This document shows positions 1 through 56,424 of a DNA stretch of 64,000 nt, piece after piece. The translations under genes and the position numbers were made by a program. Position 1 is the stretch's first letter; each line of letters opens with the position of its first letter. Source of the stretch: a virus (lineage: Duplodnaviria; Heunggongvirae; Uroviricota; Caudoviricetes); the IMG/VR virus record IMGVR_UViG_3300028534_000514, positions 1-64,000 of that record, one strand, 5' to 3'. A model generated the notes under the pieces. It was not told where the DNA came from. It did not search any database and saw only the letters and a list, made by a program, of their open reading frames with translations.

Positions 1-644
1 AAAGGGTGTCTCTTTTCCGTAGATGACATCGACACACGCTTTTGCCGAGGGGATAACTGCATCGAGAATCTCCTGTGGTGCAGGAAGACTTTCATCTTCG
101 AGTCCTGCAGAGGTCATGTTGATGATCAGATCGTAAGCTTCAGGTTTGAATGTATCGAATGTGGCTGTTTGAAACCCTTCCTGTACAAACCTCTCCAACC
201 TTCCGGCACTACGGTTGAGGATGGTCACTGCATAGCCTGCCTCTTTGAGAATGACAGAGGTGGACTGTGCCGTACCGCCAGCACCCAGAAAGAGAACCTT
301 TTTCCCTTCCAATTCATTTACTGCCTTGAGAAAACCAGGTGCATCGGTATTGTACCCGTAGAGTTTACCGTCTCTTTCAACAATGGTATTGACTGCACCG
401 ACCTTCTGTGCAAACGGGCCAAGCACATCACACGCTTCAAATGCTGCCTCTTTGTGCGGTACGGTGATGTTGATACCTTTGAGCTTCAGATTGAAAAAGG
501 TCTCTTTGAGTCTTTCCCCGTCTTCAAGCTTGTAGCGGTTGTAGCAGCCGTCAAACCTAAGCCCTTTAAAGGCAAGGTTGTGCATGAGCGGTGATTTGGA
601 GTGGGATACGGGGTTTCCGAAGATCGAAAAGAGGTATTTTGGTT
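1..644 (-). CDS. aroE: shikimate dehydrogenase (AroE), 3'-truncated by window edge
   Basis: Reverse-strand translation from ATG at 642-644 gives MGLQPKYLFSIFGNPVSHSKSPLMHNLAFKGL...NTIVERDGKLYGYNTDAPGF...LFLGAGGTAQS, the classic AroE SxS/K..N..D and GAGG NADP motifs. ~47% GC versus ~30% for the rest of the window. Not in the ORF track because it runs off the window end. Confidence 0.8.
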
Positions 645-657
645 GTAACCCCATTTT

Positions 658-903
658 TTATCCTTTTTTTAATTTTTTCCAAGAGATAAATCTTATTTTC
701 GGATCATCGATTTCTGGACCATTAAATAAAATTCCGTCTTCGATAATTTGAAAAGAATTATATTCCTTTAGACTTTCGCGCGACTGTTTATACGTTTCGA
801 TCATCTGAAATAACGCATTTTCTTTTTCAGAAAGGGTAGCTGTTAACTCTTGGATACCAGCTTTCGTTTCTTCGATTTCTCTATATAGACGCTTAGGATT
901 CAT
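658..903 (-). CDS. hypothetical protein (81 aa)
   Basis: ORF track. Tightly spaced after aroE. No recognisable motif. Confidence 0.4.
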   Translation of the reverse strand: MNPKRLYREIEETKAGIQELTATLSEKENALFQMIETYKQSRESLKEYNSFQIIEDGILFNGPEIDDPKIRFISWKKLKKG

Positions 904-920
904 TTTTTATCCTTTTATAT

Positions 921-1868
921 TTATTTTTTAGTGACCGTTGGTATTGTAACCAAAGGTTGAGCATCACCGGTCATCATAACTTTTGGTTTTACACCATCCC
1001 ATCGATCGATTTCCGCTTTATCGTTTTCAAGTTTTTTATAAGCAAGAACCTCTGGTGTTAGTGACTCAGAAATTTTGCGGTTAGCTGTTGCAATAGCAGT
1101 CGCTTCAATAATACGGGCATCAGCAATACCCTGTGCATTTACACGTTTGGCTTCCGCCTCACCTTTCTCTTTTGCAACACGCTGTTTAGCCTCAGCCTCT
1201 GTCTTTTTAATCTCTAGCTCTTTACGAGCAACTTCTTCATTCATTTGCTGTTTCTTCATGATCGATTGTTTTAACTGATGAGGAATATAAATTGCTTGGA
1301 TACTCGCAGTGGTAACGTTTACACAACCTTCGCCGAAAATATTACTAAATTGCTGATTAAGATGTTCTTTAATCTTTGCACCATACATATCCCGTTTTTC
1401 ATTAAGATCATACACTGTAGCCGTTCCAATAACTCCACGTGCAACCGAACGAACTTTAGGAACTACAATTTTTTCATCCCAAATCATATCAAGACCGTAT
1501 TTTTTACGCATATCTGGTGCACAACTTCTCGCAAGGCTATAGTTAAGAACCATATCGAGTGGCACTTCCATGCTTTCTTTTGTAAGGATAGTAAGGTGCG
1601 TATCATAGATAATTTCATTACTATCTTCTAGCCTCGCAGTTTTATTATTCATAATTAGTGCGCGAACTTTGATATTATAGATATCCAAGTCTGCCAAAGG
1701 ATTAACACTAAAATGAAATCCTTCTGCAAGTGGCTCACTGGCTACCGAACCGTTTACTACTTCAACCCCGGCTTCTCCACTATCGACAGTGTTCATATAA
1801 CACCCCTGCATTGCGAATGTTGCGACCAGACCCACGATTACCATTTTCATTGTTTTCATTGCTTTCAT
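921..1868 (-). CDS. SPFH/band-7 (prohibitin/HflC-like) domain protein, probable lipoprotein
   Basis: 315 aa. N-terminal signal ending AMQGC. Central SPFH-like region followed by a long charged coiled coil (EEVARKELEIKKTEAEAKQRVAKEKGEAEAKRV), the typical band-7 architecture. Confidence 0.7.
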   Translation of the reverse strand: MKAMKTMKMVIVGLVATFAMQGCYMNTVDSGEAGVEVVNGSVASEPLAEGFHFSVNPLADLDIYNIKVRALIMNNKTARLEDSNEIIYDTHLTILTKESMEVPLDMVLNYSLARSCAPDMRKKYGLDMIWDEKIVVPKVRSVARGVIGTATVYDLNEKRDMYGAKIKEHLNQQFSNIFGEGCVNVTTASIQAIYIPHQLKQSIMKKQQMNEEVARKELEIKKTEAEAKQRVAKEKGEAEAKRVNAQGIADARIIEATAIATANRKISESLTPEVLAYKKLENDKAEIDRWDGVKPKVMMTGDAQPLVTIPTVTKK

Positions 1869-1903
1869 TGTTTTTCCTTTATATTTTTAATTTTTATTTT
1901 GCT

Positions 1904-2125
1904 TTAGTTACTTTTATTGTTTCCGCCGAAACGAAAAAACCACTGTTTTGTCTTTACCCACACGTGTTTTTGTACATTGAACATTGCATCCGCCAGCTGA
2001 TTTAGATTCAGCTGTTGAGCAATAAATCCGATAATAAATGTTGCGAAAACTATCATCATCATTGCACTGAAAAGCATCACTATCCCTAGCATTATCGCTG
2101 CTATCAATTTATATAAAATTTGCAT
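1904..2125 (-). CDS. small membrane protein (73 aa, 2 TM)
   Basis: ORF track. Two hydrophobic helices. Confidence 0.4.
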   Translation of the reverse strand: MQILYKLIAAIMLGIVMLFSAMMMIVFATFIIGFIAQQLNLNQLADAMFNVQKHVWVKTKQWFFRFGGNNKSN

Positions 2126-2163
2126 TATTGTTCCTTTTTGAGTTTTTGATTTTTATAATAAAA

Positions 2164-2550
2164 TCACCAATCTATATCAATACCATATTCTCCTTTTTCG
2201 AGAAGTCCTCGTTTATATAAATTATCTAGGATCATAGAAACGTCTGGATAAAAATTTCTATGCCAGAATAGTTTTGTCTTCCAACTAGTATTAAAATTCT
2301 CGTCGAATTTATTGGATGGAGTGTTTCTCCAAGTTTCGAAAGAAACACCCATAATATTACCATTGAGCTCTACTGGTATTTCTGTTCTATCTATATCTTC
2401 GAGATCAGTAACCGGAATTGTAAAATAGAAAATCCCTCTATCCTTACAACCATCTTGTTGCTGGAAGGAATATGGTTTACCATACGTTTCCTTCACCAAT
2501 TTATCAAATTCTTGAACATCTACTATTGAAACCTGTTTTTTTCTCATCAT
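2164..2550 (-). CDS. hypothetical protein (128 aa)
   Basis: ORF track. Upstream context aataatgatgagaaaa. No motif. Confidence 0.45.
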   Translation of the reverse strand: MMRKKQVSIVDVQEFDKLVKETYGKPYSFQQQDGCKDRGIFYFTIPVTDLEDIDRTEIPVELNGNIMGVSFETWRNTPSNKFDENFNTSWKTKLFWHRNFYPDVSMILDNLYKRGLLEKGEYGIDIDW

Positions 2551-2557
2551 TATCCTT

Positions 2558-2695
2558 TTATTTGAAAAGCATAATAATAATTAGGAGCAACAACGATATC
2601 GCGCCGAACTGAACCATAGTTTCCTGGAATGGCGACAATGATTCTGGATCCAAATTAGTAAAGGTTTCGATTGTCCATCTTGCAAAATCGGTCAT
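2558..2695 (-). CDS. small protein with C-terminal TM helix (45 aa), not in ORF track
   Basis: Hand translation MTDFARWTIETFTNLDPESLSPFQETMVQFGAISLLLLIIIMLFK. Fills the gap between flanking genes. Below the track's 60-aa cutoff. Confidence 0.3.
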   Translation of the reverse strand: MTDFARWTIETFTNLDPESLSPFQETMVQFGAISLLLLIIIMLFK

Positions 2696-2737
2696 TTTTC
2701 ACCCGCTTTGTATTTACTTTCATCCATTTTTTATCCT

Positions 2738-2974
2738 TTATTCTAAGCTCTTCAAGCTTTCGATATATACTTTACAATTCTTAACCCAGATTGTTTGAAT
2801 TGATAATGAGCCAGGTCTAACAGGGCATTCTTCAAGGCCAGCCCTCGCTTTCTCGATATCCGCTTTTTCTTCATACGATGAAACTACCGCAACAGCACCA
2901 AAAGTGCATATCATAAAAAGCCCCAACCCTATGGAAATTAATCCTTTTTCATTTTTAGCAATTTTTTCAAACAT
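2738..2974 (-). CDS. small secreted/membrane protein (78 aa)
   Basis: N-terminal hydrophobic segment MFEKIAKNEKGLISIGLGLFMICTFGAVAVV. Confidence 0.35.
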   Translation of the reverse strand: MFEKIAKNEKGLISIGLGLFMICTFGAVAVVSSYEEKADIEKARAGLEECPVRPGSLSIQTIWVKNCKVYIESLKSLE

Positions 2975-2998
2975 TTTTTCTCCTTGTTGGTTTGGTTA

Positions 2999-3109
2999 TT
3001 AATCACGAAATAAAACCTGGATTAAGAAACCTATGAAAATTGAGGTTGCTACTCCATCTAACCCATTTGCAATCGCAGTTGCAATTATTTTTGCACTTTC
3101 CACCTCCAT
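2999..3109 (-). CDS. very small membrane peptide (36 aa), not in ORF track
   Basis: SD aaggataaataATG. Translation MEVESAKIIATAIANGLDGVATSIFIGFLIQVLFRD, a single hydrophobic hairpin. Confidence 0.3.
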   Translation of the reverse strand: MEVESAKIIATAIANGLDGVATSIFIGFLIQVLFRD

Positions 3110-3120
3110 TATTTATCCTT

Positions 3121-3354
3121 CTAAATTTTTTCTATTGAGTATGAACTCCATACAATCTTTTTTTGTCCGAGATGAAAGGTAATGCCTCCATAATTACTTT
3201 CAAAGTATTTATCGTCTTGCAAAATATGGCATTCGCCCGTGTTTACATTGCATATCTCGTAAGATGCTTCTATTTTTTTGGTATGGCGCTCATTATCATA
3301 ATATATAAATGAACCCAGTATTACAATTATCATTAAGAAAAAGATGTGTCTCAT
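3121..3354 (-). CDS. small membrane-anchored protein (77 aa)
   Basis: ORF track. N-terminal TM MRHIFFLMIIVILGSFIYY. Confidence 0.4.
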   Translation of the reverse strand: MRHIFFLMIIVILGSFIYYDNERHTKKIEASYEICNVNTGECHILQDDKYFESNYGGITFHLGQKKIVWSSYSIEKI

Positions 3355-3356
3355 TT

Positions 3357-3785
3357 TTACTCCTCGTTTTCTTCGATAAATGTTTGAAGATTTGCTACAA
3401 TATACTTTGCTTCTTTTACCGAGATTTGAATCCCAGTATCTTCATATCCCGTATCTCCTGCGATTAAAGCATAGAATTTACCATCAGATCCGATTGTAAA
3501 TCCATATCCTTTCTTAAGAGCTTCACAGTTAATACCATTGATTTTTTCGACTTCGATCCAACCGCGGCCTCCTCCATCATCCCATCGATCAGCCCATGGT
3601 TTTTTGATTTCTTCGACGATTTCAGGGATCGTAATTCCTCTTTCAAATAAATCTTCAGGATATTCCACCTCCCATTCGTCAAGAGTCTCTTTGATCTGCA
3701 TTTCATTGGTGACCGTTTCTGTTTGGGTACCATCTCGCAGTAGCTCATAACCACCAATATGATTCATTTTGATTCTGTATTCCAT
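3357..3785 (-). CDS. hypothetical protein (142 aa)
   Basis: ORF track. Stop/start juxtaposed with neighbours (operon-like). Confidence 0.5.
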   Translation of the reverse strand: MEYRIKMNHIGGYELLRDGTQTETVTNEMQIKETLDEWEVEYPEDLFERGITIPEIVEEIKKPWADRWDDGGGRGWIEVEKINGINCEALKKGYGFTIGSDGKFYALIAGDTGYEDTGIQISVKEAKYIVANLQTFIEENEE

Positions 3786-3804
3786 TTCTAATTTCCTTTA
3801 TTTT

Positions 3805-4155
3805 TTAAAGTTTAAATTGTTTAATTATAGTTCCTTTCGGAATTTCTAAAATTCTTTTGGGTTCATTCTCCAAACATTCTTTTGCCTTTGGGTTCGACTT
3901 CAAGAATTTTTCCATAAAGAAGGATTGCGTACTGCATAATTGTTCCCAAAAAATTGCATGGTCTATATCCTTTTCAATTTTAATAGTATCCTCTGCAGGT
4001 ACAATATATTGTACATAACCACCATCTTTTTTTACTTCCCCTATATATACCCTATTAGTTTTAATCATCCCGGTACCAAGATAGAACTCACCACTAATGT
4101 CAGCTGAATGGCCGTTAAGAGCGTAGAGATGAGTCTGGGAATATTCCTTCATCAC
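3805..4155 (-). CDS. hypothetical protein (116 aa)
   Basis: ORF track. The start codon is likely GTG. Confidence 0.4.
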   Translation of the reverse strand: MMKEYSQTHLYALNGHSADISGEFYLGTGMIKTNRVYIGEVKKDGGYVQYIVPAEDTIKIEKDIDHAIFWEQLCSTQSFFMEKFLKSNPKAKECLENEPKRILEIPKGTIIKQFKL

Positions 4156-4258
4156 CTAAAGTTGTAAAAATGACGATCGCTATTATGCCAATAAGTATTA
4201 ACCCTGCGACCATAAAGTCCGAATAACCTAACATTTTTTCTCCTTAATATTAAAAGAT

Positions 4259-4531
4259 TTATTTGAATCTAATAGTTGTCGATCCAACTAATGTCTCACA
4301 AACCACACCCTTAACACGACTTCCGTTCTGACCATTCGCTATGAATTGTATTTGATAGAATTCGCCTTTATGACAAGTAAACCAATCTCGTTCGGGATTG
4401 GTTTCTATATTTTTATAGCCATTTGCCTCTAGAATTCTGAGTGCTTTGTCTTTTGACATTTGATAATTGAAAAATATGGTATATACCATAAAGCCCACTA
4501 ATCCCATCAATATTATATTTATAATACGCAT
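4259..4531 (-). CDS. small membrane-anchored protein (90 aa)
   Basis: N-terminal TM. Preceded by the conserved leader ATTAAAAACAGTAAAGG. Confidence 0.5.
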   Translation of the reverse strand: MRIINIILMGLVGFMVYTIFFNYQMSKDKALRILEANGYKNIETNPERDWFTCHKGEFYQIQFIANGQNGSRVKGVVCETLVGSTTIRFK

Positions 4532-4673
4532 TATTTAACCTTTACTGTTTTTAATTTTTAATATATGAACCGAGCAGCGGTATAATTGTGTGGTGCATCA
4601 GGCTTTCACCTCCCACAACAATAAGTTTCTTAAACTCTGTCGTCCGCCAACCGCCCAGTTCTAAGTTTAGTCC

Positions 4674-5174
4674 TTAATCCATTGTGTTATAGACAACCTC
4701 ACCATATTCTTCATCATCTCCTGCTTCATCTGAAACATAGATAATTTTGATTTTGGCGTTGAATGCTTCTGCGACATCTGTAACCAAACTAAGATGAGCA
4801 TCATAGTTATCATTAAAATAGGGATTACTGATAACTAAACCTTCTTTCTCTTCCGAATATTTAAAATCAAGATTTGACCCTTCATGCCCGGGAATAAAAG
4901 CAGTCTTTCTAAAGAGATCGACATACAATGCAGCCTCCTCGTCATACAAGGATTTTGTCGTAATTGTTACACCGTTGAAATCGATGGTTTTTTCTTTTGC
5001 ACCTTTTCTGAGAGCTTCAAGCTCTCGCAATTGTGCAACAGTCATTGTTTCATCATCTAGAATCTCAAGCTCTTTAATTCTAGCCTGCTCCTCTGGAGTA
5101 GTCGTTAAACGACTTAGTACAGAACCATCAATGATAATATCACCCTTGACTTTATAGGTTACCACGTAACTCAT
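4674..5174 (-). CDS. hypothetical protein (166 aa)
   Basis: ORF track. Confidence 0.5.
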   Translation of the reverse strand: MSYVVTYKVKGDIIIDGSVLSRLTTTPEEQARIKELEILDDETMTVAQLRELEALRKGAKEKTIDFNGVTITTKSLYDEEAALYVDLFRKTAFIPGHEGSNLDFKYSEEKEGLVISNPYFNDNYDAHLSLVTDVAEAFNAKIKIIYVSDEAGDDEEYGEVVYNTMD

Positions 5175-5473
5175 AGGAAAACCTCTCTTTTATTACCATC
5201 TTCATCGATAATATAGATATCTTCGATCCAGATTGTATGCAATTCGGCATTATCTGGATACCCAGAAGGTAAATCACAACTGTCGTAATTTTCATCACGA
5301 AGTTGCTCAATCAGTTCATCAGTGATATCCTCAGTTAAAAAGGTCGTCGTACTATAGACATAATCACCATCGTTCCAATCGCCTCCAATTTCTACATAAA
5401 GACCAACTTCCAAATGCTCAGCATTTTCACCAATCTTTACGTCGAGTTGTGCCATTTTTTCTTCGATTTTCAT
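5171..5473 (-). CDS. acidic hypothetical protein (100 aa)
   Basis: ORF track. 4-nt overlap with downstream gene. Confidence 0.45.
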   Translation of the reverse strand: MKIEEKMAQLDVKIGENAEHLEVGLYVEIGGDWNDGDYVYSTTTFLTEDITDELIEQLRDENYDSCDLPSGYPDNAELHTIWIEDIYIIDEDGNKREVFL

Positions 5474-5730
5474 AGTTTATCCTTTAATTGTTTTAGGGAT
5501 TCGGGTTCATCAATTTGCTTGATAATTTCAAATGGAAGATGTGGTTCGTAGTTATCGATCACATTAACCTTTCCATTACTTTTATACGGAATTTTCTCGG
5601 TGCTAGATATTTCCATAATGTGTCCATGTAAAATATGGACATTATTCGCAGCTAGCACCTTCTCCTGAGGTGGAAAATAAACGATATATCCACCTCTGGT
5701 TTCATACCACGAATTTTCCTGGATAGTCAT
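5470..5730 (-). CDS. hypothetical protein (86 aa)
   Basis: ORF track. Overlapping stop/start. Confidence 0.45.
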   Translation of the reverse strand: MTIQENSWYETRGGYIVYFPPQEKVLAANNVHILHGHIMEISSTEKIPYKSNGKVNVIDNYEPHLPFEIIKQIDEPESLKQLKDKL

Positions 5731-5978
5731 TATTGTCCTCCTTTCGTATCTTTGGTTTCTTTCAATTCGTAGTATGACACTTCGCCATACATATCCTCCA
5801 TTTTTTTGCTACTTGGAACAACAGATATTTCTCTAATATCCAAACTTCCCGGCATATTAATTTTACCGATGAGTTCGTGCCATCTTTTCATAGCATCTGC
5901 ACGATCTTCGTAGAACCCGAATTCGGCCACTTCATGACCGAGGGCATCTAAAAATCGGACTTTATAAATTTTTTTCAT
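5730..5978 (-). CDS. hypothetical protein (82 aa)
   Basis: ORF track. Confidence 0.45.
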   Translation of the reverse strand: MKKIYKVRFLDALGHEVAEFGFYEDRADAMKRWHELIGKINMPGSLDIREISVVPSSKKMEDMYGEVSYYELKETKDTKGGQ

Positions 5979-6339
5979 CTATATCTCCTTTACGATTTTT
6001 AACTTTTAAATATCTCTTAGCAATTTCATGAGCTTTATAGAAGTCATCCGTCGCGAATCTTTCAATCACATCTTCGAAGTTTTCCCCGCTATTCTTATAC
6101 CCTTTATCATAAACAACCAGGAGATATTTTTTGAAATCTTCTGAAGTTTGACCAATAATTGCTTCTATTCCTTCTTTAGGAAGAGTCCACTCAACCCAAT
6201 CGGCTCGGCTTTCAATTAAAAGAGGCCGGCCGCGTATAACCCATCTTTCGCCTTCCGGTGATTTATAGGTCACCTCATACAGTCGATCATTACAATCAAC
6301 TATGTCGCCGATCTTAATTTTATAGTAATTAACCACCAC
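5962..6339 (-). CDS. hypothetical protein (125 aa)
   Basis: ORF track. Confidence 0.45.
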   Translation of the reverse strand: MVVNYYKIKIGDIVDCNDRLYEVTYKSPEGERWVIRGRPLLIESRADWVEWTLPKEGIEAIIGQTSEDFKKYLLVVYDKGYKNSGENFEDVIERFATDDFYKAHEIAKRYLKVKNRKGDIDEKNL

Positions 6340-6353
6340 TGATCCTTTAATAC

Positions 6354-6611
6354 TTAATTACTATTAGCGGCAATCTCAACACCTTTGCCTTCATCCAATT
6401 TCCGCAGAATTTCGTCTATCATACCTGAAGATAGTCCAAGGCTGGTTAGACGCTCTTTTGAAAAAGTATAAGTTAAATGATTTGAAAATCTCTCAAGCGA
6501 GTGTTTTAGTTTAACGTAGGGTTTTTTGTAAGAATCCAGTGCTCCTATTACGATTCGTGAATCCTCTAAAACAAGCACATAGTCCCCTGTATTTAATTGA
6601 TCTAGTTCCAT
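6354..6611 (-). CDS. hypothetical protein (85 aa)
   Basis: Preceded by conserved leader ATTAAAAACAGTAAAGGaaaaaatATG. Confidence 0.5.
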   Translation of the reverse strand: MELDQLNTGDYVLVLEDSRIVIGALDSYKKPYVKLKHSLERFSNHLTYTFSKERLTSLGLSSGMIDEILRKLDEGKGVEIAANSN

Positions 6612-6639
6612 ATTTTTTCCTTTACTGTTTTTAATGTTT

Positions 6640-7101
6640 TTAAACTTTTAGAGTCGAAACAGATCTTATAAAATAAATCTTTTCGTCGTACTCCCAAACT
6701 GATTTGCCATTATTTGGAAACGAACCTCGCTCCAACCCATCTGGAGTCGCTGTCCAAATTTCATCTTCTGTGACCCCTTCAATTATATGGAAGGAATCTC
6801 TTGTCATTTTTTGATCATTTTTTAGCAAACATCCCAAAATAAATCCAATTTTATTTATGGAATCCTTTTCAAATTTAGGTATATCTCCTATATCAAGTTG
6901 TTCTACATCGAAGTCGATATCGATTTGATCCTTGCCCAAAAACCAACCCTCGGTTGAAGGTATATCCTCCATATAAAAATGAAGAGGGATTTCTTCTCCA
7001 ACCATCTCGTGCTGAGGGTGCTTTCTAATTGCTCTTGAAAAGCATACTTTTTGTGTGTCCTTATCCGTAATTTTATAAATGCTACCTACTACAACTTTCA
7101 T
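6640..7101 (-). CDS. hypothetical protein (153 aa)
   Basis: ORF track. Confidence 0.5.
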   Translation of the reverse strand: MKVVVGSIYKITDKDTQKVCFSRAIRKHPQHEMVGEEIPLHFYMEDIPSTEGWFLGKDQIDIDFDVEQLDIGDIPKFEKDSINKIGFILGCLLKNDQKMTRDSFHIIEGVTEDEIWTATPDGLERGSFPNNGKSVWEYDEKIYFIRSVSTLKV

Positions 7102-7694: not shown

Positions 7695-7749
7695 ATTAAT
7701 CTCCTTTACTGTTTTTAATCTGACACAGAGACGTAAAATAATTTCCACA

Positions 7750-8076
7750 GGAAATTACCCATGAACCTTTGGTTCATGGGTTGCTAAAAGCAATTTTACG
7801 TGAGGAAAATATGTCGCTCAACTATCCTTAGATAATTCAGTGACATATTTTGGTTTGTGTTTCTGTTTTCTAGAGTATATTTTTTTACTCTTGATTGTTT
7901 TAGTCTTTAACGATATTTCACGCTTAATAGACAACTCTATGTTTCTGTCTCTAGCTTTTGGCTTTTGTTTTCGTTTGCGTGCCATTGTTCGCTCCTGTAA
8001 TTAATATCGCGGGAGTAATCCCGCGTCAGCTCCGTATCGATAATCATTTCCTTAAAGTTGTTAACTGACCATGTCT
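7750..8076. other. structured non-coding region downstream of the GIY-YIG gene
   Basis: No credible ORF. GC-richer than surroundings. Several stable hairpins (cccatgaacctttggttcatggg; cgcgggagtaatcccgcg; tttccacaggaaa). Confidence 0.35.
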
Positions 8077-9769: not shown

Positions 9770-10774
9770 TTAAAATACAAAGGTATATACAATAGCATAT
9801 ATTAATATTAATAGTTGCCATAAAATAATCACGTTAAAGTAATCATTAATTGGTGTATTAAAATACATTCTGCCTATATGTATACATTTATGGGTTGGGC
9901 TAAGATTATAAGCAATGAATTCAATTGTTAGAAACCATACCAAATAATGTATACCAAAGATTGAAATTATTATTGAAGCTAACCCGGCATATTTTCCGCT
10001 TGAACCCATAAGCCAACTAGCAGTAAAAGAAAAAAAACTAGCATAAACTAGGCTATGATTATTTTTGAGCAATTGCTCGAAAAGAGCAAAATGTTCTTTT
10101 ATAAAGAGTGAAACTATTAAAATAATAAATAATAATAAAACCAATTTCCAGTTTATGTATTTAAATATTTTTTTAATAGAGGAGTTACTTATTAATATAT
10201 AATACCCAGCGATTGGTATAAAGGTCAAAGCTGGAGAGTACCCAAAGCCTAATAGGATAATACCAAAAAATAATGGAAATGCTTTTAAAAAAAAAGATTT
10301 CAATGAAAATTTTTTCGTGGAAATCTTTAATTCAATATCCTCCTCTTTTATTATAAAAAAAATATATCCAAAAATAAAAAGAAAGGATATCACAATTACT
10401 GGCCACATATATTCAAAATATTCCTGGTAGGTTATACTAAGTACGGCCATTGGTAATATTACGGTTTTTTCAAGAGGACTCCAGAGATAATAATGATGAC
10501 TACTTAAATAATCAATTATTCCGAATTTTTTTCTTGATTTACCAGGTTTTGCCATAGAGTCTAATATACTAGCACTTACTGTTACCCTGCCTGGAATAGG
10601 AAGAATCCCCCCAATTAAAGACACCAAAAAAAGCTGCAGTCTCTTACTGCTAATTCTTGAAAGAACTATAAATATATCACTCAAAAATCCATAAGTTTTA
10701 ACGATTCCTGATATAATCATTATAGCGATCAAAAAGATAATATATTGAAATGGTAATATGTAATTTAATTCCAT
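9770..10774 (-). CDS. polytopic integral membrane protein (334 aa, ~9-10 TM)
   Basis: Extremely hydrophobic throughout. No catalytic motif recognised. Contains an in-frame copy of the GAGCAATTGCTC element. Confidence 0.55.
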   Translation of the reverse strand: MELNYILPFQYIIFLIAIMIISGIVKTYGFLSDIFIVLSRISSKRLQLFLVSLIGGILPIPGRVTVSASILDSMAKPGKSRKKFGIIDYLSSHHYYLWSPLEKTVILPMAVLSITYQEYFEYMWPVIVISFLFIFGYIFFIIKEEDIELKISTKKFSLKSFFLKAFPLFFGIILLGFGYSPALTFIPIAGYYILISNSSIKKIFKYINWKLVLLLFIILIVSLFIKEHFALFEQLLKNNHSLVYASFFSFTASWLMGSSGKYAGLASIIISIFGIHYLVWFLTIEFIAYNLSPTHKCIHIGRMYFNTPINDYFNVIILWQLLILIYAIVYTFVF

Positions 10775-13765: not shown

Positions 13766-13850
13766 TTATAAATCCTTATATTATTCTGCGTTAGAATTAT
13801 AATTTCTATATTTGCTCTAAAAAAATTAGCACAGGAAAATACCCTGCCAA

Positions 13851-14438
13851 TTAAGGCAAGGTATTTCCAACTTCGTCAAAATACTGATAACTTCTGCATT
13901 CGGGACAAAAAATTCTTCCTGTCGGATTTCCATTTGAATCCATCTCACAAGCCTTAAAAATAATTTTTGTAAGAGTTTTTGAACCTCTATCCGTTGGGTC
14001 ATCACCATCTGTATCTGTTAGCTCGGTACAATTTCCTTCGAAAATATCTCCAAAAGTAAACCCTGGTTCATAGTAATAAGGAACATCTTTTGAAACTTCA
14101 AATCCACATTTTGAATTTGTACAAAAGATATATTGATCAGCATCAATTTTAGTTACTGAGTCTAATTTATCAATACCCATATTATCACCATATCTTCTAG
14201 ATCTACCATCCAACGTTGTTTGTATTTTGATACCACTTCCCGGACGTTCTGGGTCTTCAATAACTAAAGTAGTATTAAATACCTTCCGATGCGGCTCATA
14301 AGCAGCAAGAATTGTTTCTTTACCAGCAATTTTTTTTAGAAAGGATTCAAACTCCTGGTCCATTTCACCATTATTTTCATCATAACCATAGGCCTCTTTT
14401 AGACCATCGATATCTTTAAAAATACCTCTTAATTCCAT
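13851..14438 (-). CDS. zinc-ribbon protein (195 aa)
   Basis: CTNSKC ... CPEC Cys4 arrangement in the C-terminal half. Preceded by an AACAAAGAT motif ~30 nt upstream. Confidence 0.5.
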   Translation of the reverse strand: MELRGIFKDIDGLKEAYGYDENNGEMDQEFESFLKKIAGKETILAAYEPHRKVFNTTLVIEDPERPGSGIKIQTTLDGRSRRYGDNMGIDKLDSVTKIDADQYIFCTNSKCGFEVSKDVPYYYEPGFTFGDIFEGNCTELTDTDGDDPTDRGSKTLTKIIFKACEMDSNGNPTGRIFCPECRSYQYFDEVGNTLP

Positions 14439-16743: not shown

Positions 16744-19700
16744 TTATAGATCTGGATCTAATATAGCTCCCCTGAAAAAGGTTTCAACCAATTTCTTAGT
16801 TTTTCCCTCTGCCGAATCGACATGTAAATCAAATATTTTTGGCATTTTACCAGTTTTAAGAACTTCTTTTTGGAATTTTCTTTTTGCCTCTTTATTATCA
16901 GAATGTAGTCCGTGAACTTCTTTTATAAGTAGACCAGGTTCTTTATAAGACATTCCAAATAAATCATATAATCCTAGCTTAATTGCTCCGGCTCCTACTC
17001 TAGTTCCGGAGCGTCCTTGTCCTGTAGTAAACTGACTTTTGACAGATAACGACCCCCGCGCACCAGCCATTGCCTTAGGAAAATGTTCCAAATAATTTAC
17101 AGGCATTATTCCAACAGGAACCTCTTTCTCTGTAAGAATATCTTCCTCTGGTACATATACCTTTTCATTAAGCGGAATACCCAAAACATTAGCAGCTTTC
17201 TGTATATTTTCAATAGTTATTTTATTTTTATGCGGAGGTACTAATAAAGGAAATGCCGGTCTTGATAGAGGATCACTTCCTAAAATATATTTCTTAATTT
17301 CTTGTGAAGAGCGGCTATCAAAGAAACCCATTACTTCATTTATTAAGAATTTATCTTTTGATTCATCCATATGGGTAAATACTTCTAGGATAAGTTCTCT
17401 AGCTTTTGATATTTGATCAGCTTTCGCTAATTCTTGAAGCTTCTTATTTAAGAAGTAAATAACTTTTCCACTATACATTAATAGAAGAATACTTACGTTT
17501 TTTCTTGATACAATCGAAAGTGGAGTTGGTATAAATTCAATCTTCATATTGGTTTTTTCCGAAACGGGTTCTTTACCTTTTGGTATGATGTATTGAACTG
17601 TTCCTTTACCACCGGTTGCTGCTAACGTAAACTTAGATCCATTTGCTATTTTATTTGGTTTTTCTATATAAATTTCGACAACTGCTCCATCGAATTCTGA
17701 GCCATTTACCGAATGCCCTCCGATTTTTATAATCTCTGTATTTGGGATATCAGAAATACAATCAACGTATTCCTTATGATTATGTTTTAAAAGTTGACAT
17801 TCTTGTTGTCTAGCTTCAACATCCTTTGCCATTTTTTTCCACTCTTTAAAAACTGTACTATCAACATTTTTATTATTTATTTTAATAACAATATCCGTAA
17901 TTTTTCCTCCGGGAGAACGGTAGTTTGTCTGCTGGCCGCTAAATTCAACTCCGGTTAAAACATCGTCTGATGTTGACTCGTCATCCTCTTCCTCGACAAT
18001 AAATCTATCAAGATTATTGCTTCCGGAAAAAGAAATTAAAATATCACCAGGATCAGTCTCTTTGCCAGATAAAAGATTCCAATCAACTATTTTTGCATCA
18101 ACTGGTATAACAACTATAACTTTTTCAAGAATTTTTTGCTCGTATTTATCCTGAACGCTTTCAGTGACTACCCAACCATCTTCATAATTCATTCCTCTAT
18201 ACGACATTTCAGCAACTACCAGGTTTTTACCACTAGCCAATTTTCCAGTTTTTAGACTCGAAGTTGTTGCTAATAAATCACCTTCTTTTACTCTTTGTCC
18301 GTCTTTAGCAATTACGTGGTATTTCATTGGGATATAAATACCACGTTTAGTTCTAGCTCTGGTTGGTTTAATACTATACTTAGATTGGGTTCCATCTCTA
18401 TTCTTAATAATAATTGTTTCATCAGTTATACTTGAAATAATTCCATCTTTTTTAGCTTTAATAGCAAATCTATCAGAAACAAGATGAGGTATAATACTTT
18501 CAAAAGAGGTTTGAACAAGAGGTTCATCTGGATTATCTAATTGAACGAATTGTCCAAATTGTTGGTTACCCATAACCCTTCTGGTAGTATCATCATATTC
18601 GTAGAATGGTTGAAGTGATTCACTCGCGGATAATAAATCGAACGGGTTAATATCATCAGTAAATTCTCTCTGCATAATAGATCCAAATCGATCAGTAATG
18701 GTTGCTTTATTAGTTAGTGTTTGGGTACTACCAACATTTCCATACTCATTTGTAGATACTGGAGCGATTACACCATAATATGAAGGATTCAAATCCCTTT
18801 TCTTTAGGGTAACTTGATCGGCCTTCATATTATTAACACCTGTTTTTGTAATCTTAGAACTAAAGTTAATCTCTTCAAGTGGATTTGTAGTTTGAGTATA
18901 TTGTAACATACCGCTTGCTTGCAATCGCTTAACGATCGCCAATGGATCTAAAATAAGTTTAAGATCATAAGCGTTTCCGGACTGTTTAAGATTTCTAACT
19001 CTACCTAAAGCTTCTCCAAATACGTTATACGCACTATTAGAAATCGCCTCAGCCATACGAATACGTTGGGTATTCAAATCGTTAAAATCTTCTTCTTTAG
19101 CATTCATTAAATATTTTGGAATATATTTACCAAGAACATCCATCATATTCGATGGAATATTATACATTTTTAAAATTTTAGCTGTTGTTTGGTCAATAAA
19201 TTGCCTATTTAATGTCTCTAAATTTTTACCAAAGGATTCACCTTTCATTTTAAAAAAAGGATTCCATAAATCTTTAGAAGACAATTCTTTCTTTTCAACT
19301 GGAAAAATTAACTTCATACCATCGAGAAGTCCATTAATCATATATTCTTCGATAACGCTGGTTGCGAAAATAGAAAGATAATTATCTTTATCGTCTATTA
19401 ATTTAAGATGTAGGTGAGCCCCAGGAGCTTTTTTCTCTCCAAATTGATAACGAAATCCAAAAAATTTAAGAGTATCCATTAATCCAAGATTTGCTATAAA
19501 AAAATGAATAAGATTAATAGTTTTACCCTGTATCTTTAATCCAAATCGAGGTTTTGAACTCTTGGCCTTTAAATCTATTCTTTCGCCAAATACTTCTTTT
19601 GAAATATTTGTATATAAATTTATAAGAAATGAAACAATTTCTTCTTTTGGCCATTTTTTAAAGTCACCTTCTTCTGTATGAAAATGAATATCAGGATCAT

Positions 19701-19800
19701 CTGGTGTTATATAAGCATATTCGACAACCTTAGAACCATTTAATTTTTCATAAAAATATAGTTTATCTTTTTTTTCATTTTCAAAATTAATTCGATACAT
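16744..19800 (-). CDS. multisubunit RNA polymerase beta-subunit homologue, C-terminal part (Rif-region to C-terminus), highly diverged
   Basis: TTNPLEEINFSSKIT ~ QNNPLSEITHKRRIS. PSYYGVIAPVSTNEYGNVG ~ THYGRVCPIETPEGPNIGL. GKNLVVAEMSYRGMNYEDGWVVTES ~ [25 protein letters not shown]. 1018 aa. Own AACAAAGTAT promoter-like motif. Confidence 0.7.
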   Translation of the reverse strand: MYRINFENEKKDKLYFYEKLNGSKVVEYAYITPDDPDIHFHTEEGDFKKWPKEEIVSFLINLYTNISKEVFGERIDLKAKSSKPRFGLKIQGKTINLIHFFIANLGLMDTLKFFGFRYQFGEKKAPGAHLHLKLIDDKDNYLSIFATSVIEEYMINGLLDGMKLIFPVEKKELSSKDLWNPFFKMKGESFGKNLETLNRQFIDQTTAKILKMYNIPSNMMDVLGKYIPKYLMNAKEEDFNDLNTQRIRMAEAISNSAYNVFGEALGRVRNLKQSGNAYDLKLILDPLAIVKRLQASGMLQYTQTTNPLEEINFSSKITKTGVNNMKADQVTLKKRDLNPSYYGVIAPVSTNEYGNVGSTQTLTNKATITDRFGSIMQREFTDDINPFDLLSASESLQPFYEYDDTTRRVMGNQQFGQFVQLDNPDEPLVQTSFESIIPHLVSDRFAIKAKKDGIISSITDETIIIKNRDGTQSKYSIKPTRARTKRGIYIPMKYHVIAKDGQRVKEGDLLATTSSLKTGKLASGKNLVVAEMSYRGMNYEDGWVVTESVQDKYEQKILEKVIVVIPVDAKIVDWNLLSGKETDPGDILISFSGSNNLDRFIVEEEDDESTSDDVLTGVEFSGQQTNYRSPGGKITDIVIKINNKNVDSTVFKEWKKMAKDVEARQQECQLLKHNHKEYVDCISDIPNTEIIKIGGHSVNGSEFDGAVVEIYIEKPNKIANGSKFTLAATGGKGTVQYIIPKGKEPVSEKTNMKIEFIPTPLSIVSRKNVSILLLMYSGKVIYFLNKKLQELAKADQISKARELILEVFTHMDESKDKFLINEVMGFFDSRSSQEIKKYILGSDPLSRPAFPLLVPPHKNKITIENIQKAANVLGIPLNEKVYVPEEDILTEKEVPVGIMPVNYLEHFPKAMAGARGSLSVKSQFTTGQGRSGTRVGAGAIKLGLYDLFGMSYKEPGLLIKEVHGLHSDNKEAKRKFQKEVLKTGKMPKIFDLHVDSAEGKTKKLVETFFRGAILDPDL

Positions 19801-19825
19801 TATTATTCCTTTTAATATTAATAAT

Positions 19826-19837
19826 ACTTTGTTGAAT
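19826..19837 (-). promoter_or_regulatory. late-promoter-like motif TTCAACAAAGTA (minus strand) upstream of beta-C
   Basis: Same AACAAAG core as the other 10 copies, ~30 nt before the ATG. Confidence 0.45.
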
Positions 19838-19857
19838 GCTTAGATTTTGGGACAGGA

Positions 19858-19885
19858 AATCATAAGCCCGTAGGCTTATGATTTA
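19858..19885 (-). terminator. hairpin (aaatcataagcc-cgta-ggcttatgattt) followed by TTCCTGTCCC
   Basis: Perfect 12-bp stem. Follows the 92-aa gene. Part of the recurrent hairpin+TCCTGT architecture. Confidence 0.5.
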
Positions 19886-19963
19886 TTTTTTGGTTGCCCA
19901 ATCAGCGACGGCCTTCTGGATATCCATTTCCTTTTTACACTAAGGTATCTATTTTCATTTTAT

Positions 19964-20242
19964 TTAAAGAGTTTTCGCCGATTGTCTCATAACCTCAGCA
20001 TGATTTTTACCATAGAGTTTTTCACCCTCTTTTGCAAACTTTTTTATTTCATCCGGGGTCATTTTTTGCATCGATTTTAAATTTGCATAAATCCCAAGAC
20101 CACTACCAAGACCAAGACCAGTTCCCATGGTAGTGGCACCGAGAGCAGCCCCAACAGGACCTGCTGCTAGTCCGCCTCCAAGAGCCCCACCAAGAGCCCC
20201 GAAAGCACCAGCTTTTAAACCCTGTTTACCAGCAATTTTCAT
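19964..20242 (-). CDS. glycine-zipper small membrane protein (92 aa)
   Basis: GAFGALGGALGGGLAAGPVGAALGATTMGTGLGLGSGLG. An in-frame upstream 34-codon ORF is separated from it only by a TAG codon. Confidence 0.4.
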   Translation of the reverse strand: MKIAGKQGLKAGAFGALGGALGGGLAAGPVGAALGATTMGTGLGLGSGLGIYANLKSMQKMTPDEIKKFAKEGEKLYGKNHAEVMRQSAKTL

Positions 20243-20436
20243 CTTCCCAATTGTAGTTTGTAACTCAGCAATCTATTCTGGAGACATTCCTTGAAGCTGC
20301 AAAGCCATATTTCTATTACGCATATCATCCCAAGCTTCCTCAATTAATGAAGCAATTTTATTTTCAACAATATTCATCTATTTTTCCTTTTTTTTCATGG
20401 TATTTTTTTATCCTTATTTTGTTCAAAACTATCAAA

Positions 20437-21282
20437 TTATATTTTATTTAATTTAAGAATATCTTCTTTAAAGAATTCTGTCCGCCCACCTTTAGTTTCA
20501 GGCCAGCTTGGGTTCTCGCAACGTATATAATTAAAAGCTTCTAATATTTCTTGCTCTGCTAGATATGCATCCTGTCCATTTTCATAAGTTTGCTCAAACA
20601 GAGCAATTGCTCGTTTAGAGCAAAATTCCTTACCAAAACGTTCTTCTATACTATTGTTAGTAATACCTATTTTATATAGATCTTCTTGTGGATCCCAAAT
20701 ATAATATAAGATAGCAGGCTTATCTGGATTAAAGCCATTTTTAGAACATCTTGGGCAACCAGCACCCTTATAAAGATGATTCATCGCAAAAACCTCGAAA
20801 TTACCATGAATTTCACAATTTAATTTAATTTTATCAAAAATATTATTATAATTTATATCGCTATAATTATATTTATCTCCATGAATAGCTTTCGATTCTC
20901 TAATAAACTCATTTCTTCTTTTATTCAGATCGCATGATGGACACCCACTTCCTTTTAAATGTAAACGTGCAGTTGTTTTAAAAACTCCACATTCGCATAC
21001 AATACTAAGAGTTCTATTCCACAGGCGGTCATAACCAATTAAATCATAGTTATATTTATCTCCATGAATATCTTTAAATCTTATTATTAATTTATCTCGT
21101 TTTTCTTCTTTTTTACAATGTGGACATCCACTTCCTTTTAAATGATCAGAAGGAGTTTTTTTAAATATACCGTGCTTTTCACACTCTATATTTATAGGAG
21201 AATGAGCTCCGAAATATTCGCTATAACTATATTTATTATTATGAATTCCATTTGCTCGCTCCACAAAATCATTTAAAGTCAT
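20437..21282 (-). CDS. homing-endonuclease-like protein: three Zn-ribbon repeats + C-terminal T5orf172/GIY-YIG-like domain
   Basis: Three repeats of H(G/N)DKYNY...C..HG.F......HLKGSGCP.C. C-terminus ILYYIWDPQEDLYKIGITNNSIEERF. Start codon overlaps the beta-N stop (TAATG). Confidence 0.6.
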   Translation of the reverse strand: MTLNDFVERANGIHNNKYSYSEYFGAHSPINIECEKHGIFKKTPSDHLKGSGCPHCKKEEKRDKLIIRFKDIHGDKYNYDLIGYDRLWNRTLSIVCECGVFKTTARLHLKGSGCPSCDLNKRRNEFIRESKAIHGDKYNYSDINYNNIFDKIKLNCEIHGNFEVFAMNHLYKGAGCPRCSKNGFNPDKPAILYYIWDPQEDLYKIGITNNSIEERFGKEFCSKRAIALFEQTYENGQDAYLAEQEILEAFNYIRCENPSWPETKGGRTEFFKEDILKLNKI

Positions 21283-22931
21283 TATTTTATCTCAATATTA
21301 GTAAAAATATCTGAGTTTATAAATTCAGGAAGATTATATTTTTCTTTAATATTATTAATCTTTTCCTCGGATATTTTTTCTGGAGCCTTCTTAAGTTTTT
21401 TAGTTCGTTTAAGACTTTGCTCAAAATTATTAAGTAAATCTTTTACACCTTCATTTTCATTAAATACATGTGTTTTAAGTATTACAGCCGCTGTACCATA
21501 ATGGGTGTAAAGTCTAACTGTTTGTGGAGCAACCTTAATAACAGGTTTAGGAAAAAACTGATTAATCATGATCCAGTCGTTGCCACCAAGCTTAAGATAT
21601 TTACCCTTGGACGGGATGGGAACATGAAAAGAAACAGTATATGGTTTACTATGACCAAAATCTTTATGTTGCAATTTAATTTTATATGTTTTGTATCTGT
21701 CGCGATTAGTGTCCGTAATTTCAGTTCTAATATTTAATACTTTAATACCAACCTCTTTATCTGCCTCAATCGATTTAATTAAATCAAAGATAGCCTGATC
21801 AAGATTTTCCCCAAATTCGGTATCCTGTTTATTATAAGCATTAAACGTTTTAAACCCAATGATATTAAATGGATTATAAAATGTTTTTGTATTTTTTAAT
21901 ACTGTCGACTCATTTAATTCAATTGCACCATTATATTGTTTTTGTAGCTTCTCGAGTTCTTCAGATATTTCAGAAACTATTTTCACTTCTTTTGATTTTT
22001 TATCCGGCCCAGATTGGTCAGTTTTTTCATTAAATAAATTACTTAATTTCTCTTCAAAGGATTTGCCTTTTATATGCGGATTCCTAATAACTTCATTTTT
22101 AATAAGCTCTAACGGATTTTCTTCTATATTATCTGATTTTTTTGTGATCCCTGAGATATCGTTTACTGCAGATCTAAGCTGTTCTTTATGCAATTCATAT
22201 AGAGCTTTAACCGTGTTTTTTGTATCTTCAATCGCCTCTTCCGGGGTCTGCTCCTCTTCTATTTCTGAATTATGGACTTCCTTCATAAACCGTGTAAATA
22301 TACTCATATTTATTTTAAAGAAGGTTCCCTCTTTATCTTCATCTTTAATGGTTAGGGGCCAAAATCTTTTTGCACCGTATAAAGCAATTCCTTCTATACC
22401 ATTAATTCTTAATTTATTACCATTTAATCTAGAATAATAATGAATTGCCTCGGCCATTTCTGATTCGTCACCAATAGAAGAATCTATTACAAGATATGTA
22501 TCTTTTCCAGTAGCTTTACTATCCTCAGCAAATTTCTGAATGAGCTCAAAAAAAGCTTCCATTGTCATTTTTTTAGATCTACTTTTACTAAACGCCGTAA
22601 AATTCTCACTTAGAGGAGTTAAATCAATAACAGTTGATTTTGACTCGTTACTATTTTTCATAAAACGTCTCTGTATTCTTATCATCGGTATAGCTTTTTT
22701 AAAGCTTTTATAATAATTATTGGTATATATTTTATGAAACAGAAAGGTAAATGTCATTGGAATTATAACATAATCCCAATAATTTTTTTTGCGATATTTA
22801 TTAATAAAATTAATACCGGAATTCCCGAGCTCTGGGTAATATATTACATTAACCCCTTTATTTTCAGCATCTCTAAAAATAAGATTGGTAGTAACCACCC
22901 TATTTTTAAAAAAAGTTGTTATTTTTAACAT
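21282..22931 (-). CDS. multisubunit RNA polymerase beta-subunit homologue, N-terminal part
   Basis: PIPSKGKYLKLGGNDWIMINQFFPKPVIKV aligns with beta [24 protein letters not shown]. 549 aa. Lies directly upstream of the HEG and beta-C. Confidence 0.55.
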   Translation of the reverse strand: MLKITTFFKNRVVTTNLIFRDAENKGVNVIYYPELGNSGINFINKYRKKNYWDYVIIPMTFTFLFHKIYTNNYYKSFKKAIPMIRIQRRFMKNSNESKSTVIDLTPLSENFTAFSKSRSKKMTMEAFFELIQKFAEDSKATGKDTYLVIDSSIGDESEMAEAIHYYSRLNGNKLRINGIEGIALYGAKRFWPLTIKDEDKEGTFFKINMSIFTRFMKEVHNSEIEEEQTPEEAIEDTKNTVKALYELHKEQLRSAVNDISGITKKSDNIEENPLELIKNEVIRNPHIKGKSFEEKLSNLFNEKTDQSGPDKKSKEVKIVSEISEELEKLQKQYNGAIELNESTVLKNTKTFYNPFNIIGFKTFNAYNKQDTEFGENLDQAIFDLIKSIEADKEVGIKVLNIRTEITDTNRDRYKTYKIKLQHKDFGHSKPYTVSFHVPIPSKGKYLKLGGNDWIMINQFFPKPVIKVAPQTVRLYTHYGTAAVILKTHVFNENEGVKDLLNNFEQSLKRTKKLKKAPEKISEEKINNIKEKYNLPEFINSDIFTNIEIK

Positions 22932-49834: not shown

Positions 49835-49851
49835 TCATATAATTCTGTTTT

Positions 49852-49879
49852 AAACCATTGAGCTCGAGCTCAATGGTTT
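49852..49879 (+). terminator. perfect 28-nt palindrome aaaccattgagctc|gagctcaatggttt followed by TTTCCTGTCC and AACAAAGAT
   Basis: Directly after the fibre gene stop. Confidence 0.55.
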
Positions 49880-56416: not shown

Positions 56417-56424
56417 TAACTAAA

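Follow-up and report, generated by a model that had tools for sequence, protein, structure and literature searches.

A probable two-gene RNA polymerase beta subunit in an uncultured phage and the homing endonuclease gene lodged between its halves

The window analyzed here is the 64,000-nucleotide (nt) stretch at positions 1 to 64,000 of IMG/VR virus record IMGVR_UViG_3300028534_000514, which derives from a phage of the Caudoviricetes. The window is AT-rich (G + C content of ~34%), with a switch of coding strand near 32.7 kb. Every gene in the 16.7–23 kb interval lies on the minus strand. This interval contains two genes, named betaN and betaC here, which very probably encode the two parts of one RNA polymerase (RNAP) beta subunit, and a homing endonuclease gene (HEG) is located in the gap between them. 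The features of the locus, from betaN to betaC, are as follows.

21282–22931, minus strand: betaN, 549 amino acids (aa)
21280–21284, minus strand: TAATG overlap, in which one base serves both the stop codon of betaN (TAA) and the start codon of the HEG (ATG)
20437–21282, minus strand: HEG, 281 aa, with three zinc modules and a T5orf172 domain
19964–20377, minus strand: decayed small gene, a 137-codon frame with one in-frame TAG
19857–19884, minus strand: 12-bp hairpin followed by TTTCCTGT (19852–19859), terminator-like, closing the unit of betaN, HEG, and small gene
19827–19833, minus strand: promoter-like motif AACAAAG, located 33 nt upstream of the ATG of betaC and followed by the Shine-Dalgarno sequence AAAGGA
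16744–19800, minus strand: betaC, 1018 aa

The open reading frames (ORFs) of betaN, the HEG, and betaC all had exactly the limits given in a preliminary description of this DNA. Its central statement, that a phage multisubunit-RNAP beta is carried in two genes with a T5orf172 (GIY-YIG-like) HEG in the gap, was upheld. The overlap of the HEG start with the betaN stop, which had also been described, was read directly from the sequence. The HEG does lie in the gap and abuts the betaN stop codon, but it is not "exactly" between the halves as had been claimed, because the decayed gene and a terminator-promoter cassette come before betaC. That description had overlooked the 137-codon frame as well as the fact that the hairpin and AACAAAG form a cassette found repeatedly across the window.

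On sequence, betaC is beyond doubt a homologue of RNAP beta. It matched the Pfam families RNA_pol_Rpb2_6 (3.7e-12, 46.5 bits; cut-off 23.4) and Rpb2_3 (2.4e-07, 31.3 bits; cut-off 21), and bacterial beta chains in the PDB were reached from it by phmmer at an E value of 1.8e-31. Its PHROG matches were phrog_3148 (2e-54), phrog_14872, and phrog_3233, the last of which covers residues 799–1015. In the phmmer alignment, the stretch NPLEE...RDLNPSYYGVIAPVSTNEYGNVG was aligned residue for residue to the Rif/fork region including PIETPEG, PFYEYDDTTRRVMGNQQ was aligned to PFLEHDDANRALMG, and GKNLVVAEMSYRGMNYED was aligned to GKNLLVAFMPWEGHNYED of bacterial beta, as was the PF-x-E-x-DD block to its bacterial counterpart. 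The Rif-region, PIETPEG-equivalent, and NYED-type motifs previously ascribed to this gene are thus confirmed. The double-psi beta-barrel of RpoB/Rpb2 is represented by GKNLVVAEMSYRGMNYED and GSKFTLAATGGKGTV (the NYED and GxKG blocks), both aligned; the fork/Rif region carries a PIETPEG-type loop, and the family aligned to E. coli RpoB 508–585 with an hhalign probability of 96.8. For the C-terminal clamp, residues 1259–1533 of the family profile corresponded to residues 1063–1330 of bacterial beta (i-Evalue, 1e-48). The content of betaC is a putative lobe, the fork/Rif region, the catalytic double-psi beta-barrel with the flap, and the clamp's C-terminal portion. Its first ~300 residues showed no sequence alignment to cellular beta, and betaC aligns from E. 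coli residue ~508 on. A total of 118 betaC homologues were found.

The identity of betaN had to be approached through its relatives. The protein had no match in Pfam or PHROG, its family profile found no PDB sequence at E ≤ 10, and its isolated AlphaFold2 (AF2) model, with a predicted local distance difference test (pLDDT) score of 73, had no Foldseek match in the PDB below an E value of 0.04. Of the two ORFs described earlier as halves of beta, only betaC could be aligned to RpoB: hhalign returned nothing for the betaN family against E. coli RpoB 1–350, and the fused family aligned to RpoB 1–585 only in the fork region, so sequence comparison gives no E. coli coordinate for the split. The N-terminal protrusion and lobe of RpoB (beta1/beta2, G-x-F-x-INGxERV) were aligned neither from betaN nor from the first ~300 residues of betaC. 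betaN is composed of a phage-specific alpha/beta domain (~1–220), a helical region, a beta-rich conserved block (~396–484), and a C-terminal strand ending in ...NIEIK. The motif KLGGNDWIMINQFFPKPVIKV (residues ~447–470) forms the most conserved block of the family. Its earlier designation as the equivalent of ...SPGV is plausible in this respect but could not be verified by alignment to cellular beta.

When a profile of the 20 closest relatives of betaN was used as a query, 139 cluster representatives were found. Many of these are fused proteins of 1,480–1,710 aa, in which the first ~570 residues correspond to betaN and the rest to betaC in the same order, and betaN and betaC form one collinear protein in dozens of relatives. 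Residues 373–478 of betaN also matched a gene annotated as the AR9/PBS1 "RNA polymerase beta subunit" (tblastn; E value, 3e-5). The identification of betaN as beta rests on the fused homologues, this tblastn match, and weak structural matches. All relatives were taken from large protein collections; a megablast search of 50,697 phage records with the 7.5-kb region found no match, and IMG/VR scans with betaC and betaN gave no confirmed relatives.

The separation of the two genes recurs in the family. Among 42 betaN homologues, the 37 that are complete are stand-alone proteins of 528–581 aa with identities from 81% down to 32% (the other five are shorter fragments), and ~80 betaC homologues open with Met and 0–20 residues followed by the conserved YKIDF strand. 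At the junction, the unsplit protein P0043 reads AEVV-SDGLT-YKIDF, and the window reads NIEIK, stop, and then M-YRINF. An AF2 model of P0043 residues 395–760 (pLDDT 82) contained a strand (168–174), a turn (175–176), and a second strand (177–181) with pLDDT values of 88–93; in this model, the cut of the window falls in the tight turn of a hairpin. It is therefore very probable that betaN and betaC are one jumbo-phage multisubunit-RNAP beta in two separate genes, cut in a beta-hairpin turn at which nothing was lost or gained. The two proteins would most likely reassemble non-covalently by strand pairing in the beta1/lobe region, with the last strand of betaN (...NIEIK) pairing with the first strand of betaC (YRINF..., after Met). 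Several points weigh against this interpretation. betaN is not alignable by sequence to cellular beta, and genomic context was read for ten split relatives, which is a limited sample. The T run of the hairpin upstream of betaC is short on the coding strand; termination may therefore be partial, and transcripts from upstream may also read through into betaC.

The position of the cut differs from those in known phage RNAPs. Two-gene beta homologues occur in AR9 (gp105/gp089) and phiKZ (gp123/gp71-73) and work without covalent joining, and the window likewise has two genes. The preliminary description regarded this arrangement as the hallmark split of phiKZ- and AR9-like phages, and this view did not survive the comparison of the boundaries. 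Residue 20 of betaC in AR9's non-virion RNAP (nvRNAP; 7s00_C) falls at profile position 943, which is residue ~389 of window betaC, a point at which the window protein is unbroken. AR9 gp089 starts at the equivalent of betaC ~370–389, ~375 residues downstream of the window cut, and the nvRNAP-type break just upstream of the PF(L/Y)EHDD block is absent from the window beta. A single-sequence PDB search with the window protein listed no AR9 or phiKZ chain. Furthermore, nvRNAP genes are dispersed, whereas the window genes are adjacent and have unsplit close relatives. The two systems are alike in lacking alpha and omega subunits in the neighborhood.

The closest relatives from isolated phages are phiR1-37 g099 (1393 aa), which is annotated as a "phage structural protein" in its record, and Psa21 gp244 (1492 aa), and both share the long phage-specific N-terminal region. 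These proteins run unbroken through the window cut and end near betaC ~790, with phrog_3233 as a separate C-terminal protein; consistently, phrog_3148 and phrog_14872 end at betaC 787–791. The window betaC, in contrast, retains residues 799–1015. The pattern in the window is thus the opposite of the virion RNAP (vRNAP)-type architecture, with an early cut and the C-terminal part kept, and unsplit proteins of 1,597 aa occur in sister phages. The beta of the window represents a third, previously undescribed cut pattern, in which an early break is combined with an otherwise complete subunit. Breaks in homologue length at betaC ~321–356, ~400–416, ~480–541, and ~720–725 were not counted as splits, because the PBS1 control described below showed that such pieces could be exons separated by introns.

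The content of the gap varied among the split relatives. For the following relatives, the identity to the window protein and the state of the gap are given.

L003: betaN 81%; SNase-like gene
L004: betaN 68%; 56-aa ORF
L006: betaN 64%; two ORFs
L007: betaN 59%; four ORFs
L009: betaN 36%; 349 nt, gene-free
L016: betaC 76%; 126 nt
L017: betaC 75%; 152-aa ORF
L019: betaC 44%; ORFs overlapping by 17 nt in the +1 frame
L018: betaC 47%; betaC not beside betaN, halves unlinked

The interval between the halves spans −17 nt to 2.5 kb and consists of unrelated sequence. The cargo genes of the relatives are mostly ORFans, and only the SNase-like nuclease of L003 could be named. This 135-aa protein (phrog_452; 9854–10398) is encoded between the AACAAAG promoter and betaC, is bounded on both sides by ~38 nt of promoter-proximal/start region, and shares the Met-Tyr start of betaC. 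The gene appears to have entered the same gap in a second, separate insertion event. In L019, the 528-aa betaN overlaps the betaC start at 4990–5020. In L018, the genes upstream of betaC (1–5000) are encoded on the opposite strand; among them is a RecJ-like gene with a gene for a 232-aa DUF723 protein on each side.

The HEG of the window has an uninterrupted ORF that encodes both a nuclease domain and a modular DNA-binding region. The T5orf172 match (23.8 bits; cut-off 20) covers residues 192–275 of a nuclease domain that extends over 187–278. DUF4379 and DUF723 were also matched in Pfam, and the PHROG matches were phrog_681 "endonuclease" (1e-49) and phrog_559. The three tandem zinc modules (IHG-x-KY-x-Y ... 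G-x-GCP-x-C) are located at 14–56, 73–117, and 134–179. The G + C content of the gene (30%) is like that of its neighbors. The family comprises more than 589 proteins, and three paralogues with 53–55% identity are attributed to a contig whose length, 285,272 bp, is that of the window's own contig. In addition, the proteins P0327 and P0342 (422–425 aa) share 72–73% identity with the HEG over only 35% of its length and contain DUF7487, and a DUF7487 gene adjoins the primase in L012. These observations suggest module swapping among the endonuclease-like genes of the phage group.

The HEG was absent from the site in L003, L004, L006, L007, L009, L016, L017, and L019, and the locus is therefore polymorphic for its presence. 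In L003, the betaN stop is followed by 16 nt and then by a homologue of window positions 20343–20251. Since the window has this sequence downstream of the HEG, the L003 arrangement represents the site without its occupant. Because split relatives lack the HEG and an empty site exists, the HEG is, judging from these loci, a late colonist of a pre-existing boundary and a passenger. This was one of two alternatives offered in the preliminary description. The HEG is most likely translated by coupling to betaN through the TAATG overlap. As with free-standing HEGs of other phages, it would be expected to spread in co-infections, in which it would cut HEG-less relatives near this locus and repair would copy it into them; the gap acts as a landing pad for accessory DNA.

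The small gene downstream of the HEG consists of a 34-codon ORF (20276–20377), a TAG codon (20273–20275), and a 92-aa Gly-rich hydrophobic ORF (19964–20242). The TAG aligns to CAG (Gln) in L003, whose own copy is truncated and lacks the Gly-rich core, and the 56-aa ORF of L004 is homologous to the N-terminus of the small gene. The intact product would have 137 aa with a glycine-zipper-like hydrophobic core. These comparisons suggest a decaying membrane-protein gene, one of the variable items carried in the gap. Recoding of TAG was considered and set aside for three reasons: the window's long ORFs stay open when read with table 11, 5 of the 52 long ORFs terminate in TAG, and L003 has a copy that was broken independently. 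The TAG of the small gene may nevertheless be read through.

Uninterrupted and HEG-free arrangements, which the preliminary description had proposed to look for, were both found among the relatives. The unsplit P0043 and P0213 (1,597 and 1,598 aa) share 47% identity with betaN and 58–59% with betaC, and their loci have the gene order of the window: primase, two beta'-like genes, a gp13-like gene, beta, the Endonuclease VII-domain gene, and RecJ. In a bootstrapped neighbor-joining tree of cluster representatives built on 993 betaC columns, all deep branches were unsplit. P0043 and P0213 joined the split P0212 with 100% support and were nested in clades of 13, 17, and 22 taxa (100% each), the others of which are all split; the unsplit P0055 (100%) and P0249 (91%) were nested similarly. 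The betaN tree agreed with the betaC tree. Unsplit relatives are thus a nested minority among split ones, and the trees imply either at least three re-fusions or many splits at one turn. Recombination between phages may be a source of the scattered states. As the 17-nt overlap of L019 illustrates, a one-base frame change in the linker would be enough in either direction. We therefore tentatively propose, as a possibility to which we give somewhat less than even weight, that the beta-hairpin turn is an evolutionary toggle, that the clade has switched several times between the one-piece and two-piece states, and that the gap acts as a cargo ratchet until the halves finally drift apart, as in L018. 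If this were true, the fragmentation of jumbo-phage RNAPs would reflect recent, neutral, and reversible gene fission rather than a primordial multi-piece relic.

betaC is preceded by signals of its own. The hairpin and the AACAAAGTAT promoter-like motif noted earlier are both present upstream of this gene. The exact 10-mer AACAAAGTAT is not repeated in the window, and when one mismatch was allowed, neither AACAAAGTAT nor ATTTCCTGTC was enriched; a signal emerged only when shorter cores were considered together with their position relative to start codons. The 7-mer AACAAAG is positionally confined in a promoter-like manner. Its 12 copies in the window are no more than expected by chance, but all lie on the local coding strand, and 10 of the 12 are located 30–43 nt upstream of an ORF start (binomial P ~4e-19). 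The copies, often in the form TTYAACAAAGAT, are at the following positions.

9265, 14468, 19827, and 32740, minus strand: AACAAAG
32750, 36468, 45101, 49890, 51233, 56466, 57375, and 62746, plus strand: AACAAAG

No copy was found upstream of betaN, and a scan for sigma-70-type promoters was uninformative, as it gave fewer matches than shuffled sequences. Hairpins followed by TTTCCTGT precede several AACAAAG copies and recur at other gene boundaries of the window, as listed here.

49850–49887, 56420–56453, 35660–35702, 13830–13870, and 7746–7790: hairpin followed by TTTCCTGT(G/C), terminator-like

The placement of the hairpin, TTTCCTGT, AACAAAG, and the Shine-Dalgarno sequence upstream of betaC was kept in L003, L016, L017, L004, and L007; the hairpin position is conserved in these five, with stems that differ or are compensated. 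We infer that betaC holds its own copy of the standard terminator-promoter cassette of the phage. The transcription unit of betaN would end at the hairpin, and betaC would be driven by its own AACAAAG promoter-like motif and ribosome-binding site. AACAAAG is a candidate for the promoter that the phage polymerase itself uses; the AACA core of the motif recalls the AR9 late promoter.

Several other explanations of the locus were considered. The HEG, or its direct ancestor, could itself have split an intact beta gene by insertion, as is the case for mobE and nrdA in Aeromonas phage Aeh1. Such HEG-made "genes in pieces" are documented (PMC3045599, PMC2677866), mobile elements have been proposed as the origin of the splits in jumbo-phage RNAPs (PMC7598289), and the HEG abuts the betaN stop codon. 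The unsplit beta of the sister phages and of all deep branches shows in addition that the split is derived. We consider this explanation unlikely, however, because all ten split relatives examined, including those with 81% and 68–69% betaN identity, lack the HEG, and their identical cut encloses different contents or nothing; the split state is thus not confined to loci with the HEG. The suggestion in the preliminary description that the insertion created the split is also contradicted by the occurrence of the same split in ~40 betaN and ~80 betaC homologues with identities down to 32–45%. No remnant of the HEG was found in related loci by tblastn, and the 17-nt overlap of L019 indicates that a frameshift in the linker suffices without any insertion. 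An older element, now lost, may lie behind the split. It is less likely still that the 549-aa protein is an unrelated accessory that is merely fused to beta in some phages. This would account for the lack of Pfam, PHROG, and PDB sequence matches even by profile, for the empty hhalign result against E. coli RpoB 1–350, and for the P-loop-like alpha/beta domain at residues 1–220, which is unknown in cellular beta. Nevertheless, the fusion is universal on the deep branches and collinear throughout the family, of which phiR1-37 virion RNAP beta and Psa21 gp244 are members, and the conserved block 373–478 matches the annotated beta gene of AR9/PBS1. In addition, the AF2 model places the betaN tail and the betaC head in one hairpin within one predicted domain, and a cellular beta needs its N-terminal counterparts somewhere, given that betaC aligns only from E. 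coli residue ~508 onward.

Two further explanations would restore a single beta by splicing. In AR9/PBS1, RNAP genes carry group I introns (PMC7598289), and a scattered pattern of split and unsplit states at one site is typical of mobile introns; the 1.5-kb interval might accordingly be a self-splicing intron that contains the HEG, with a single beta made from a spliced mRNA as for several AR9/PBS1 genes. At the level of sequence, the search for an intron or a spliced joining of the halves, which the preliminary description had treated as decisive, found none: Rfam detected no intron in window positions 14–26 kb at E ≤ 1 or in ten related loci at E ≤ 0.1. The same scan of the PBS1 beta locus, used as a positive control, returned five RF00028 group I hits of 31–102 bits, four of them above the 50-bit gathering score, which makes the negative result meaningful. 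The HEG therefore lacks the surrounding intron core that an intron-encoded endonuclease would have. Moreover, in ~80 homologues, a stop codon occurs exactly where homology ends, and Met with a Shine-Dalgarno sequence occurs exactly where it resumes; the interval contains the terminator-promoter cassette used elsewhere in the genome; and it varies from −17 nt to 2.5 kb of unrelated sequence, with one lineage unlinked. An intron is thus extremely improbable. The layout of a half gene, a GIY-YIG-type HEG, and a second half with a nearby hairpin also resembles the fractured-gene loci of Dassa et al. (PMC2677866), and split-intein halves on either side of the HEG could join the products into one beta by trans-splicing. 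We regard this as practically excluded: compared with the unsplit homologues, betaN has no spare C-terminal residues and betaC has only an additional Met, leaving no room for an N-intein of ~100 aa or a C-intein of ~35 aa, and no Hint/intein domain was found in Pfam. Two separate genes for one beta therefore remain the preferred interpretation. In the PBS1 control (NC_043027.1, 56000–68000; L001), the intron hits lie at 4455–6845 of the locus, around gp79, an HNH gene, and between gp80 and gp78, which are annotated as RNAP beta. Both "beta" coding sequences of PBS1 thus probably belong, as exons, to a single gene that contains multiple introns and small exons, and metagenome homologues of 850–990 aa may be such first exons.

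The split of beta and beta' is regarded as a defining and possibly ancient trait of jumbo phages. Split RNAPs have been interpreted as remnants of a multi-piece enzyme older than the last universal common ancestor (PMC7824862) and have also been attributed to mobile introns followed by rearrangement (PMC7598289). In AR9/PBS1, the RNAP genes are interrupted by endonuclease genes and group I introns (Lavysh et al., 2016, as summarized in PMC7598289). These genes thus resemble the window in having been colonized by HEGs, but their interruptions are self-splicing introns, whereas the window has no intron and its halves are independent genes. Among T4-like phages, the Aeh1 arrangement nrdA-a / mobE / nrdA-b is an essential gene in pieces with a free-standing HEG (PMC3045599), and gp43 of Aeromonas phage 25 and T4 39/60 with mobA are further genes in pieces (reviewed in PMC2988022). 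In those systems, the HEG is held to be the cause of the split and the pieces associate non-covalently; in the window, the split is older and more widespread than the HEG, and the cargo is interchangeable. The window HEG also resembles the intergenic free-standing HEGs of T-even phages, such as the seg genes and mobE, which lies between nrdA and nrdB (PMC2988022, PMC10448857): these likewise occupy short intergenic sites flanked by conserved essential genes, vary in presence among close relatives, have several paralogues per genome, and encode GIY-YIG-superfamily nucleases with modular DNA-binding repeats. The modules differ, being three DUF723/DUF4379 zinc modules in the window HEG and NUMOD/helix-turn-helix modules in the T-even enzymes.

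The split RNAPs of jumbo phages, the HEGs and introns of AR9/PBS1, and the genes in pieces of T4-like phages were thus documented beforehand (PMC7598289, PMC7824862, PMC3045599, PMC2988022, PMC2677866). The position of the cut, its placement in a predicted hairpin turn, the coexistence of different states in one family, and the role of the HEG as a passenger are new. One related family spans unsplit, overlapping, adjacent, cargo-filled, and unlinked states, so that the locus and its relatives present every stage, with a cut at a new hairpin-turn site, and the origin of RNAP fragmentation becomes testable by comparative genomics. The locus also illustrates that an HEG found between the halves of a gene need not have caused the split. 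The hairpin site is a candidate permissive point for an engineered split RNAP beta, and AACAAAG together with the hairpin-TTTCCTGT element provides a first promoter/terminator grammar for this uncultured phage group.

The RNAP genes of the window are clustered beside a primase gene (27462–30374), and the following genes were found in the neighborhood of beta.

26154–27419, minus strand: beta'-like gene, 421 aa
24871–26043, minus strand: beta'-like gene, 390 aa, adjoining the 421-aa gene
30458–31468, minus strand: second endonuclease-like gene, 336 aa
15537–16655, minus strand: Endonuclease VII-domain protein, 372 aa (Pfam, 4.9e-12)

The 421- and 390-aa genes had PHROG RNAP subunit matches (phrog_2986, 1.5e-29; phrog_2962, 2.3e-21), and the orthologue of the 390-aa gene in L011 and L012 carries Pfam RNA_pol_Rpb1_5. 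The 336-aa gene, which lies close downstream of the primase gene, matched phrog_3339 "homing endonuclease" (1.5e-105) and phrog_559 "HNH endonuclease" and had no Pfam match. In all relatives examined, whether split or unsplit (L003, L004, L011, L012, L016, and L017), the 372-aa Endonuclease VII gene is conserved downstream of beta, one to four genes away; it is a stable neighbor rather than a mobile HEG. Lastly, a pair of AACAAAG copies facing away from each other (32740–32746, minus strand; 32750–32756, plus strand) lies within 32700–32800, where the coding strand and the GC skew switch sign; this segment would be a region of divergent promoters and may also mark a boundary related to replication.

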